The notes beneath the pieces were generated by a model. That model did not search any database and was not told the DNA's origin. It saw nothing but the letters and a program-made list of their open reading frames with translations. This document shows positions 14,373-15,717 of a stretch of 64,000 nt of DNA, piece after piece. The translations under genes were made by a program, and so were the position numbers. This DNA comes from Escherichia phage Ec_O157kw: the sequence record PV857777.1. One strand, 5' to 3'. Position 1 is the first letter of the stretch. Every line of letters starts with the position of its first letter.

Positions 14373-14891
14373 ATGGCTTACTTTAATGAATGTTCACAAC
14401 TGATCGAAGGCGCTGATAAAGCTCAAAATGAATACTGGGATATTCTCGGTGATGAAAAAGACCCACTACAGGTTATGCTTGATATGCAGAAATCTTTACA
14501 GGTTCGTTTAGCTAAAGATAAACCTGAATATAACCGTCATCCTGATGATTTGGCTACTGCAGGCGAAGTTGTTGATTGGCTGCGTAATCAGAAAGATTAT
14601 ATTGACGATGAATTCCGTGAACTTCTGACTTCTCTTGGCGGCATGAGCAATGGTGAAAAAGATGCATCTGCTGTATGGAAACCTTGGAAGTCACAGCACG
14701 GTGAACGTCGTGAAACTCTAATTACTGATTTGTCTCCGCAAGACCAGTTGGAAATTAAATTTGAAATGATTGATATTCTTCATTTCGTTCTGAATATGTT
14801 CCAAGGTCTCGGTCTTACGGCTGAAGAAATCTTTAAACTTTATTATCTGAAGAACAAACATAATTTTGAACGTCAAGATAATGGATATTAA
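14373..14891 (+). CDS. 56: dCTPase/dUTPase gp56
   Basis: 172 aa; MAYFNECSQLIEGADKAQNEYWDILGD; MazG-like fold. Confidence 0.9.
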   Translation: MAYFNECSQLIEGADKAQNEYWDILGDEKDPLQVMLDMQKSLQVRLAKDKPEYNRHPDDLATAGEVVDWLRNQKDYIDDEFRELLTSLGGMSNGEKDASAVWKPWKSQHGERRETLITDLSPQDQLEIKFEMIDILHFVLNMFQGLGLTAEEIFKLYYLKNKHNFERQDNGY

Positions 14892-15717
14892 TTTCAAATC
14901 TGCTCTTAAAGAAAAGTTCCCGCAATGGGAACTTTTAGATGAGTACTTAAAAATTATAGATAAATATAAGTTAAACACTCACATTAAATCTAAAACAGAA
15001 GCCCATCATATACTTCCTAAATGCGCATTTCCTGAGTATAGTGATTTTAAAATACATCCTTGGAATAGAGTATATCTCCCAATATATCAACACATATATG
15101 TTCACTATCTCTTATGTTCAACTGGAAGATTTGGATTGCTGAATGCATTCCAGAGAATGACCTCAGTAAATAGCTCGCAATTTAAGAAGCTTTCTGACTC
15201 AGAAAAAGACTTTACTATTAAGTTATGGGCTGATAAACGTGAGCAATGGATAAACCAAGATACTCTTCGTAAAAGAAAATCTTTCATGTATTCCAACTTT
15301 GATTTTTGGTATAATGACTGGATTTCAAGAGATATGCCTCGCTACCGAAGATATTGGGGAATTTTAGTTGAAGAAAATAACCCAGAAATTTTAGGTACTC
15401 ACAAAAATTGCCTAATAGCCGCAGTAAAAGATTTTTGCATAAGATATTCAAAGGAAAATAATTTATCTATAGAAGAAGTTTTAAATATTCAAAAATTAAA
15501 ACAGTCATCTGAAAAAGCTTTAAAAGCTAAAGGAAAAACTTTAAGCAAAACTGCACGCAGAAATCAACTTAAATGGAATTATGAAAAAGAGCTTAGAGAA
15601 TTATGGATTAATAACAACAAACCTAAATATGTCAATTTTAGAAAACTAGCAGTTAGCCTAGGTTATCCTGACGAAAATTATATAAACATGGTAAAGAGAT
15701 TTGAAAATGGATTATAA
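14881..15717 (+). CDS. HNH homing endonuclease (free-standing)
   Basis: ATG overlaps the last 11 nt of gene 56; 278 aa; HNH motif EAHHILPKC...N...H. Confidence 0.7.
   Translation: MDINFKSALKEKFPQWELLDEYLKIIDKYKLNTHIKSKTEAHHILPKCAFPEYSDFKIHPWNRVYLPIYQHIYVHYLLCSTGRFGLLNAFQRMTSVNSSQFKKLSDSEKDFTIKLWADKREQWINQDTLRKRKSFMYSNFDFWYNDWISRDMPRYRRYWGILVEENNPEILGTHKNCLIAAVKDFCIRYSKENNLSIEEVLNIQKLKQSSEKALKAKGKTLSKTARRNQLKWNYEKELRELWINNNKPKYVNFRKLAVSLGYPDENYINMVKRFENGL

Follow-up and report, generated by a model that had tools for sequence, protein, structure and literature searches.

A candidate HNH homing endonuclease cassette of the T-even Mob type between gene 56 and soc of Escherichia phage Ec_O157kw, in the slot that holds segF in T4

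The stretch of DNA analysed here, 64,000 nucleotides of Escherichia phage Ec_O157kw (sequence record PV857777.1; referred to below as the window), carries between gene 56 and soc an open reading frame (ORF) of 278 codons, which an earlier note, made from the sequence alone, had taken for an HNH homing endonuclease gene beginning in the last 11 nt of gene 56, at the junction where T4 carries the GIY-YIG endonuclease gene segF. Read directly, the sequence places the start ATG at 14881 and the stop TAA at 15715-15717, with 11 nt (14881-14891) shared with gene 56, as the note had it; the program-made ORF list prolongs the frame to a TTG at 14866, but all annotated orthologues begin at the ATG instead. 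Given its 278 codons in DNA of about 35% G+C, and intact orthologues under purifying selection, it is no chance ORF. The features of the region are collected in Table 1. We consider it likely that the segment from about 14852 to 15720 is a homing-endonuclease cassette of the 'Mob' type of T-even phages, mobile and without a promoter of its own, judging by its sequence anatomy, homology, distribution, signature of horizontal transfer and the purifying selection upon it.

Table 1. Features in and around the 56/soc interval (positions in the window).
Feature	Position	Strand	Remarks
T4 middle-promoter-like site (GCTT-N13-TATAAT; MotA-box-like ATTGCTTTA)	14316-14338	+	Upstream of gene 56; predicted
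Gene 56 (dCTPase/dUTPase), upstream host gene	14373-14891	+	172 aa; PHROG 173 NTP pyrophosphohydrolase (1.8e-46), Pfam dUTPase_2
Cassette-linked gene 56 3' end (...KNKHNFERQDNGY*), left edge of the cassette	14852-14891	+	Holds the endonuclease start codon
Mob-type HNH homing endonuclease gene (candidate)	14881-15717	+	278 aa, free-standing, intact; PHROG, BLASTP, orthologues in the slot, dN/dS
Hairpin AAAAGUUCCC-GCAAU-GGGAACUUUU, terminator-like	14912-14936	+	10-bp stem, in codons 11-19
HNH (beta-beta-alpha-metal) catalytic core, aa 39-76	14995-15108	+	TEAHHILPKC...WNRVYL...QHIYVH
C-terminal three-helix module (51 aa), presumed DNA-binding/targeting domain	15556-15708	+	W.Y..L..LW..N.KPKY..FRK.AVS.GYPD.NY..MV..F
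soc late promoter TATAAATA, right edge of the cassette	15713-15720	+	Overlaps the endonuclease stop (TTA TAA ATA)
soc (small outer capsid protein), downstream host gene	15752-15988	+	Pfam Soc 6.3e-19, PHROG 1715 1.9e-41
Intrinsic terminator after soc, end of the local transcription unit	15995-16016	+	9-bp stem, 5 G-C pairs, T-rich tail

The N-terminal part of the predicted protein contains the clear HNH motif that had first drawn attention to it. In an alignment of 35 homologous sequences the residues H42, H43, P46, N62, L66, H71 and H75 are invariant, and in a profile alignment the HH..N..H..H of the ORF falls on the same residues of the T4 Mob proteins. The whole length of the protein matched PHROG 655 'homing endonuclease' (3e-32), and residues 17-105 matched PHROG 12434 'HNH endonuclease' (4e-10); PF01844 was matched by only three of the 35 aligned homologues. 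Alignment by hhalign of the N-terminal profile of this sub-family with a profile of T4 MobB/C/D/E-type N-termini gave a probability of 98.2% (E 6e-14), and the T4 Mob profile matched solved HNH domains (group II intron maturase, McrA, Cas8f-HNH and pyocin AP41) with E-values down to 1e-5, those for colicin E7 and IscB being 0.05-0.8 only. The link to HNH enzymes indicated by these profiles is transitive, running from the sub-family to the Mob profile and from there to the solved domains. A full-length AlphaFold2 (AF2) model had a predicted local distance difference test (pLDDT) score of 80, with values above 90 for residues 1-130 (87 for the N-terminal domain modelled alone), and showed a beta-beta-alpha core of strands 39-43 and 63-67 followed by a helix, 68-81, with pLDDT above 90; a search of the model against the PDB with Foldseek found nothing. 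Taken together, the invariant motif, the PHROG matches, the profile alignment and the AF2 core bear out, at the level of sequence and model, the assignment of the gene to the HNH-type homing endonucleases.

The BLASTP and profile searches that the earlier note had proposed as a check place the protein close to the Mob family. Its nearest T4 paralogue and best T4 match is MobD (BLASTP, 24% identity over 259 aa, E 2e-9), MobB, MobE and MobC being similar to it just around the HNH motif, and the HNH link itself came by hhalign through the Mob profile. MobD has the same architecture, with an N-terminal HNH domain, a linker and, at residues 199-248, the same C-terminal 51-aa module, but it lies in the nrdC.11/mobD.1 slot rather than between 56 and soc, its linker has NUMOD3-like repeats, unlike that of the ORF, and its N-terminus is the canonical 'MNYxxIY...HHIIPxCxGGxDD' rather than 'FPxW...HHILPK..FPEY.D', with a beta1-beta2 loop five residues shorter; its entry in Table 1 of a review is 'ND' (PMC2988022). 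The complete canonical Mob signature, 'MNYxxIY...E.HHIIP.C.GG.DD..NLV.LT..EH..AH', does not fit the ORF, in which 'FP.W..L..Y' and 'FPEY.D' replace the MNY..IY helix and the GG.DD loop of the Mobs. Because the N-terminal signature fails, we have filed the protein as a member of a new sub-family and not under MobA-E; its sequence indicates a sister sub-family of the T4 Mobs, which would work like a Mob protein while standing outside the five canonical types. A GIY-YIG domain is not present in the ORF, the N-terminal domain of SegF is dissimilar to it and only the C-terminal module is common to the two.

When 1.84e9 representative proteins were searched exhaustively with HMMER, 774 relatives came up at E ≤ 1e-3, one alone of which exceeds 50% identity. 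The N-terminal (residues ~4-130) and C-terminal (residues ~205-276) parts were matched independently in this search, from which we conclude that the protein is modular, and the predicted order of domains is an N-terminal HNH domain (residues ~1-105), a helical linker modelled with low confidence and a C-terminal three-helix module (residues 226-276). A retrieval of homologous proteins gave three proteins only, and a scan of IMG/VR for related loci gave only one locus, the same as that of phage vB_EcoM_005.

The C-terminal module, modelled by AF2 as a three-helix unit at residues 230-277 with a pLDDT of about 88, has no model in Pfam. Canonical Mob-like HNH proteins end in one, two or three copies of it, and it is also found in proteins with T4 SegF-like N-termini (..YRTYI...YAGKHES..); it is probably a DNA-targeting domain that reads the target DNA. 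A hidden Markov model (HMM) of the module, built without any T4 proteins, scored 60 bits against T4 MobD 199-248 and 16.5 bits against T4 SegF 169-193, the latter match taking in just the first half of the module, that is, a degenerate copy. The review by Edgell, Gibb and Belfort draws SegF as a 'hybrid endonuclease' (PMC2988022), and the presence of the module in the C-terminus of SegF explains this drawing. Residues 132-168 of the linker (nt 15274-15384) hold a weak, degenerate second copy of the module (8.9 bits), which hints that the linker originated by module duplication.

In order to see how widely the gene is distributed, we searched phage records with the 1.8-kb 56-soc region of the window, and 732 of them matched, 27 covering at least 80% of the region including the ORF. 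A tblastn search with the ORF gave 30 records at 80% amino acid identity or above, the next relatives lying at about 30%, which puts the gene in approximately 4% of related genomes (some 27-30 of about 730 matching records). Seven loci carrying it (HNH+ loci) were examined, from the Tevenvirinae genera Tequatrovirus, Jiaodavirus, Moonvirus, Gaprivervirus and Dhakavirus, and in all of them it occupies the 56/soc interval and shares the same 11 nt with gene 56. As is typical of free-standing mob and seg genes, it stands between conserved genes and is present or absent among close relatives. Reference genomes with the gene at this exact position are ACG-C40 (NC_019399), fPS-2 (NC_054943), PYPS2T and Kha5h, and orthologues in the slot are annotated 'HNH endonuclease' or 'homing endonuclease' in public genomes, RefSeq included. 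We found no experimental characterization of the gene in the searchable literature, and it goes undiscussed in the papers on the phages fPS-2 and PYPS2T. Identity to an already characterized mob gene at the same position would, according to the earlier note, have spoken against its proposal; the gene does stand there in reference genomes, but it is annotated only, not characterized.

The insertion hotspot that the note had suspected at this junction is real, in that six states of the slot were seen: empty, soc.1 with soc.2, one small ORF, segF, the HNH gene, and the HNH gene with a 77-aa ORF. Orthologues of SegF (at least 60% amino acid identity) fill the slot in about 61 records from several host groups, and in the empty slots of Mosigvirus FP43 and JK45 the stop codon of 56 is followed by 6 nt and then TATAAATA. 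The 77-aa ORF, which has no family assignment, was found in DK-13 (L010, 4376-4609), where it follows the HNH gene and precedes the soc late promoter.

The edges of the cassette are sharp. Compared with the Klebsiella Jiaodavirus SmallBear, the ORF is 97.5% identical in nucleotide sequence, against 68% for primase and 77% for gene 56, and no similarity of the SmallBear soc and mrh to the window was detected by BLAST; in 40-nt bins the identity steps from 70-80% to 100% at about 14853, and from about 95% to 45-70% after about 15720. Within the Tequatroviruses, the fixed differences between HNH+ phages and those of the soc.1/soc.2 type comprise 13 positions in gene 56, all at 14852-14885 and none elsewhere in the gene, which turn KNAENFARQDRGY into KNKHNFERQDNGY, and only one position in the 700 nt of the right flank. 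The same C-terminus of gp56 is encoded by all seven aligned HNH+ loci, from five genera, and the stretch 14852-14891 is identical in T4, which carries segF. The ratio of nonsynonymous to synonymous substitution rates (dN/dS) of the ORF against six orthologues is 0.07-0.15 and similar across all three domains. The near-identical island, the sharp edges and the low dN/dS therefore suggest a functional gene that moved recently between genera as a unit of about 870 bp, and the sequence comparisons indicate horizontal transfer of the cassette with little or no flanking DNA.

Two alternatives to a mobile, active endonuclease have to be weighed against these data. The first is that the protein has been domesticated and is kept for the benefit of the phage, not as a selfish mobile element, for instance through exclusion, in which it would cut the genomes of competitors but make no copy of its own gene, or as a regulator that binds DNA at oriA/56. 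We regard this as very unlikely. Retention of this kind is discussed in the literature (PMC2988022), homing endonucleases are known to confer marker-exclusion advantages, purifying selection is strong in all domains and, the ORF being placed between a terminator-like hairpin and the soc promoter, its loss could be costly. On the other hand, the gene is in only about 4% of related genomes and yet in five genera, a near-identical island with sharp edges in a background of 45-80% identity is what mobility, not vertical retention, predicts, and exclusion and homing are not mutually exclusive. The second alternative is decay, the ORF being the inactive remains of a homing endonuclease in the manner of T4 mobA and I-TevIII. 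The orthologue in vB_EcoM_005 is indeed frameshifted in a rearranged locus, and the non-canonical beta1-beta2 loop and the missing Pfam HNH match (see below) might be taken as signs of decay; however, the six other translated orthologues are of full length without stops, most tblastn matches span the whole 278 aa, all motif residues are invariant, dN/dS is as low as stated above and the transfer between genera is recent, and we hold decay to be extremely improbable.

In the locus of vB_EcoM_005 (Dhakavirus; L011, 2892-4566; the same contig as IMG/VR L139) part of the sequence is duplicated in tandem. First comes an internally deleted gene 56 of the Dhaka type, and next codons 1-19 of the HNH gene, hairpin included. 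These codons run in frame into a gene 56 of the Tequatrovirus type, which is present from codon ~48 onwards and is 92-95% identical to the window, and behind it stands the HNH gene, frameshifted just past the hairpin. Either illegitimate repair during invasion by the cassette has left a scar here, or the arrangement is an assembly chimera.

The sequence also has the features expected of a promoterless cassette, namely the 11-nt overlap, a middle-promoter-like site before gene 56 and TATAAATA over the stop codon. In fPS-2 and SA20RB the equivalents of the site at 14316-14338 bear the annotation of a predicted middle promoter, and this site is the likely source of a transcript that would also carry the HNH ORF. 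Inspection of the sequence before the HNH ATG revealed no Shine-Dalgarno-like sequence. The soc late promoter, said in the earlier note to lie inside the 3' end of the ORF, is at 15713-15720, but merely its first 5 nt, the stop codon included, are within the ORF; in T4 the stop of segF sits on the soc promoter in the same register (GTA TAA ATA). The hairpin near the start of the ORF has a minimum free energy of -15.1 kcal/mol (z -4.3), is 100% conserved in alleles with synonymous divergence (dS) of up to 0.9 and is annotated as a terminator in fPS-2. In ACG-C40 (L003, ~3060-3084) the loop is the reverse complement (ATTGC) of the GCAAT of the window with an unchanged stem, and the protein changes from PQW to PLR, which suggests that the hairpin flips or that selection acts on the stem and not on the peptide. 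Judged by these comparisons, the hairpin appears to be conserved beyond what coding needs.

The nuclease activity, target, mode of expression and homing of the HNH cassette are what we infer, as follows. The gene would be transcribed from the gene 56 middle promoter, and the hairpin in codons 11-19 would attenuate transcription into it; segF and mobE are likewise promoterless cassettes with internal terminators in the same relative place (PMC2988022). Translation would be by re-initiation at the AUG 11 nt inside gene 56, a model already proposed for the 11-bp overlap of segF (PMC2988022). When a cassette-free T4-like phage infects the same cell, the enzyme would, by likeness to MobE and MobA, which nick one strand (PMC2790892, PMC2988022), nick or cut the genome of that phage in the 56-soc region, and recombination-dependent repair would copy the cassette to the recipient together with the recoded ~40 nt at the end of gene 56. 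Since carriers and non-carriers are alike outside 14852-15720, the recognition site should take in the recoded end of 56, the junction or the replaced DNA. We tentatively place the target, or at least the determinant of self-immunity, within the gene 56 3' end, at the junction or in the DNA that the cassette replaced, and not hundreds of base pairs away; the predicted break is a strand-specific nick no further than about 100 bp from where gene 56 ends, in the ...AAAAATGCTGAAAATTTCGCACGTCAAGACCGAGGTTATTAATG allele.

Several observations weigh against a Mob-type homing cassette with these properties. Searches of the ORF against Pfam and NCBIfam gave no match, a sequence-profile search of the PDB gave only a spurious match to augmin, and the beta1-beta2 loop is five residues longer than in the Mobs and lacks the canonical GGsDD. 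A simple terminator scan passed over the hairpin because its T-run is only 4 nt long. The characterized free-standing T4 endonucleases usually cleave hundreds of base pairs from their own gene (PMC2988022), which speaks against a target next to the junction. Finally, the cassette-type 3' end of gene 56, considered as a strict marker of the endonuclease, had to be rejected on account of AnYang, CE1 and the empty-slot phages. CE1 has a hybrid gene 56 3' allele with soc.2 in the slot, and in the empty-slot phages gene 56 ends ...QHNFERQDNGY with an ATG already at -11 (GATAATGGTTACTAA). A BLAST search with 72 nt of the cassette-type 56 end gave no clean count of alleles, as partial matches blur the identity bands.

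In AnYang (Dhakavirus; L138, 2035-2730) segF is joined to the 'KNAENFARQDRGY' allele of 56, with GTG rather than ATG at -11 and an annotated start further upstream; its sequence indicates that the position of the endonuclease start is conserved despite the different flanking allele.

The relation of the HNH gene to segF is the point on which the earlier note stands only in part. As it had stated, the 56/soc slot of T4 (NC_000866) holds the GIY-YIG gene segF, there too with an 11-nt overlap, and alignment of the 56-soc interval across T-even genomes, which it had proposed, does reveal a hotspot with HNH and segF as alleles; what the alignment brings out is, however, a common cassette frame rather than clear independence. 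Gene 56 of the window is 93-97% identical in nucleotide sequence to that of endonuclease-free Tequatroviruses and only 78% to that of T4, but its last 69 nt, including GGATATTAA, are 100% identical in T4 and the window, against 78% for the rest of the gene. The HNH and segF ORFs begin at the same ATG (ATGGATATTAA), both proteins starting MDI, and the two sequences part immediately after the stop codon of 56. From the common start codon and the common right edge on the soc late promoter, the HNH cassette appears to be allelic to segF.

The note had seen in the unrelated nuclease a sign of independent invasion. That a nuclease of an unrelated family occupies the same slot is correct, but independence is not established by it, as the two cassettes share the 69-nt flank, the ATG, the stop register, the hairpin and the C-terminal module. 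Independent invasion, in which the HNH gene and segF each entered an empty 56/soc junction separately, is possible, if somewhat doubtful. The start codon, overlap and promoter-overlapping stop would then be convergent, the result of translational coupling to 56 and of keeping the soc promoter. The catalytic domains are unrelated, BLASTP finds the two proteins similar in the C-terminus only, the ATG that empty-slot phages hold at -11 could be used by any incoming ORF, and segF in AnYang has its GTG at -11 on a different 56 allele. In addition, the C-terminal half of T4 SegF is nearer to MobD (E 3e-5) than to the ORF (E 0.4), and endonucleases of more than one class are known to have taken the same genes as targets independently (PMC2988022). 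Convergence does not readily account for the 69 nt of identity ending exactly past the stop codon, for both stops lying in the same register on TATAAATA or for a 5' hairpin in both cassettes. On these sequence grounds, replacement of a cassette or ORF within a common frame fits at least as well as two separate invasions, and the most likely history is that one of the HNH and segF cassettes took the place of the other, or that the two recombined, and not that their origins are wholly independent.

A more specific version of replacement, an in-situ swap of the catalytic domain or ORF on one scaffold, we consider rather unlikely. The scaffold would consist of the same AUG in 56, the recoded 56 C-terminus, the related C-terminal module and the promoter-overlapping stop. 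If such a swap had taken place, a nicking HNH enzyme and a double-strand-cutting GIY-YIG enzyme would compete for one homing site at the end of 56, the 13 recoded positions at 14852-14885 would be the determinant of immunity, and the two genes would form a natural, genus-spanning pair for comparing nick- and break-initiated homing and the reuse of targeting modules. Direct derivation of T4 SegF from the HNH protein by replacement of the N-terminal domain was also considered and is unsupported, the C-terminal half of SegF being nearer to MobD. We also looked in viral contigs for an empty slot with an MDI-type junction (pattern AATGGATATTRAN{0,30}TATAAATA); the matches listed were only chance AT-rich ones, none of them T4-like, a result that says nothing either way.

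The T4 locus itself (L004, 2832-4286) is far more diverged from the window in gene 56 (78%) and soc (71%) than in the flanking primase (97%) and mrh.2 (96.6%), and the 56-segF-soc block therefore looks imported from a different T4-like lineage; T4 gp56 resembles the gp56 of Gaprivervirus and Dhakavirus.

Among known systems, T4 SegF (gp69) is the nearest in position, with the same slot, ATG and register of the stop on TATAAATA, an early hairpin and no promoter of its own, but it has a GIY-YIG catalytic domain and nothing similar to the ORF outside the C-terminal module, and its block has strongly diverged 56 and soc where the HNH cassette has tight edges. Experiments cited in PMC2330249 have shown that SegF cleaves gene 56 of T2 and drives marker exclusion. 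T4 MobE is also a free-standing, promoterless HNH protein of the Mob type, whose gene overlaps or abuts the upstream gene, has an internal terminator and lies between conserved host genes (PMC2790892); it differs in its slot, nrdA/nrdB, in its C-terminal NUMOD1 and in that only the HNH core is like the ORF (38% over 39 aa, E 3e-3). MobE makes a strand-specific nick in T2 nrdB at nt 122-126, outside its own gene (PMC2790892). The pairs SegH/mobC and Hef/mobE offer a published precedent for endonucleases of different class in one slot that target the same host gene, although at nrdG/nrdD and nrdA/nrdB, and in each of them one endonuclease gene is reported to have been replaced by one of the other class (Sandegren, Nord & Sjoberg 2005, as cited in PMC2988022). 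I-HmuI of Bacillus phage SPO1, the general paradigm for such enzymes, joins an HNH domain to a modular DNA-binding tail with a helical end and nicks one strand (PMC2988022, PMC2790892); it is, however, intron-encoded, and no direct match to the ORF in sequence or structure was detected.

Both the type of element and the phenomenon of replacement are published, the gene is annotated in RefSeq genomes and no concept is changed by the present locus. If the protein is active, 56/soc would be the second or third documented T-even slot with allelic endonucleases of different catalytic classes, and an unusually clean one in its common start codon, sharp edges, common targeting module and transfer across five genera. 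The system would suit open questions in T4 biology: how a Mob nick becomes recombinogenic, how self-immunity is encoded and how homing endonucleases bring about local mosaicism between phage genera.

Polymorphism extends to the primase (61)/56 interval (14105-14372): there the window has no more than a small ORF on the minus strand (14101-14301), T4 and ACG-C40 have dam and DK-13 has a 249-aa HNH gene right after primase. In fPS-2 and PYPS2T a 216-aa HNH+NUMOD3 endonuclease is encoded directly upstream of 56, which is therefore flanked by homing endonuclease genes on both sides. A second free-standing HNH gene of the window, of the mobE type (60130-60861, plus strand; 243 aa, Pfam HNH and NUMOD1), lies between nrdA (57866-60130) and nrdB (~60860-62039), its ATG overlapping the nrdA stop; the protein is 62% identical to T4 MobE over the first ~105 aa and is longer than the T4 MobE annotation of 141 aa.

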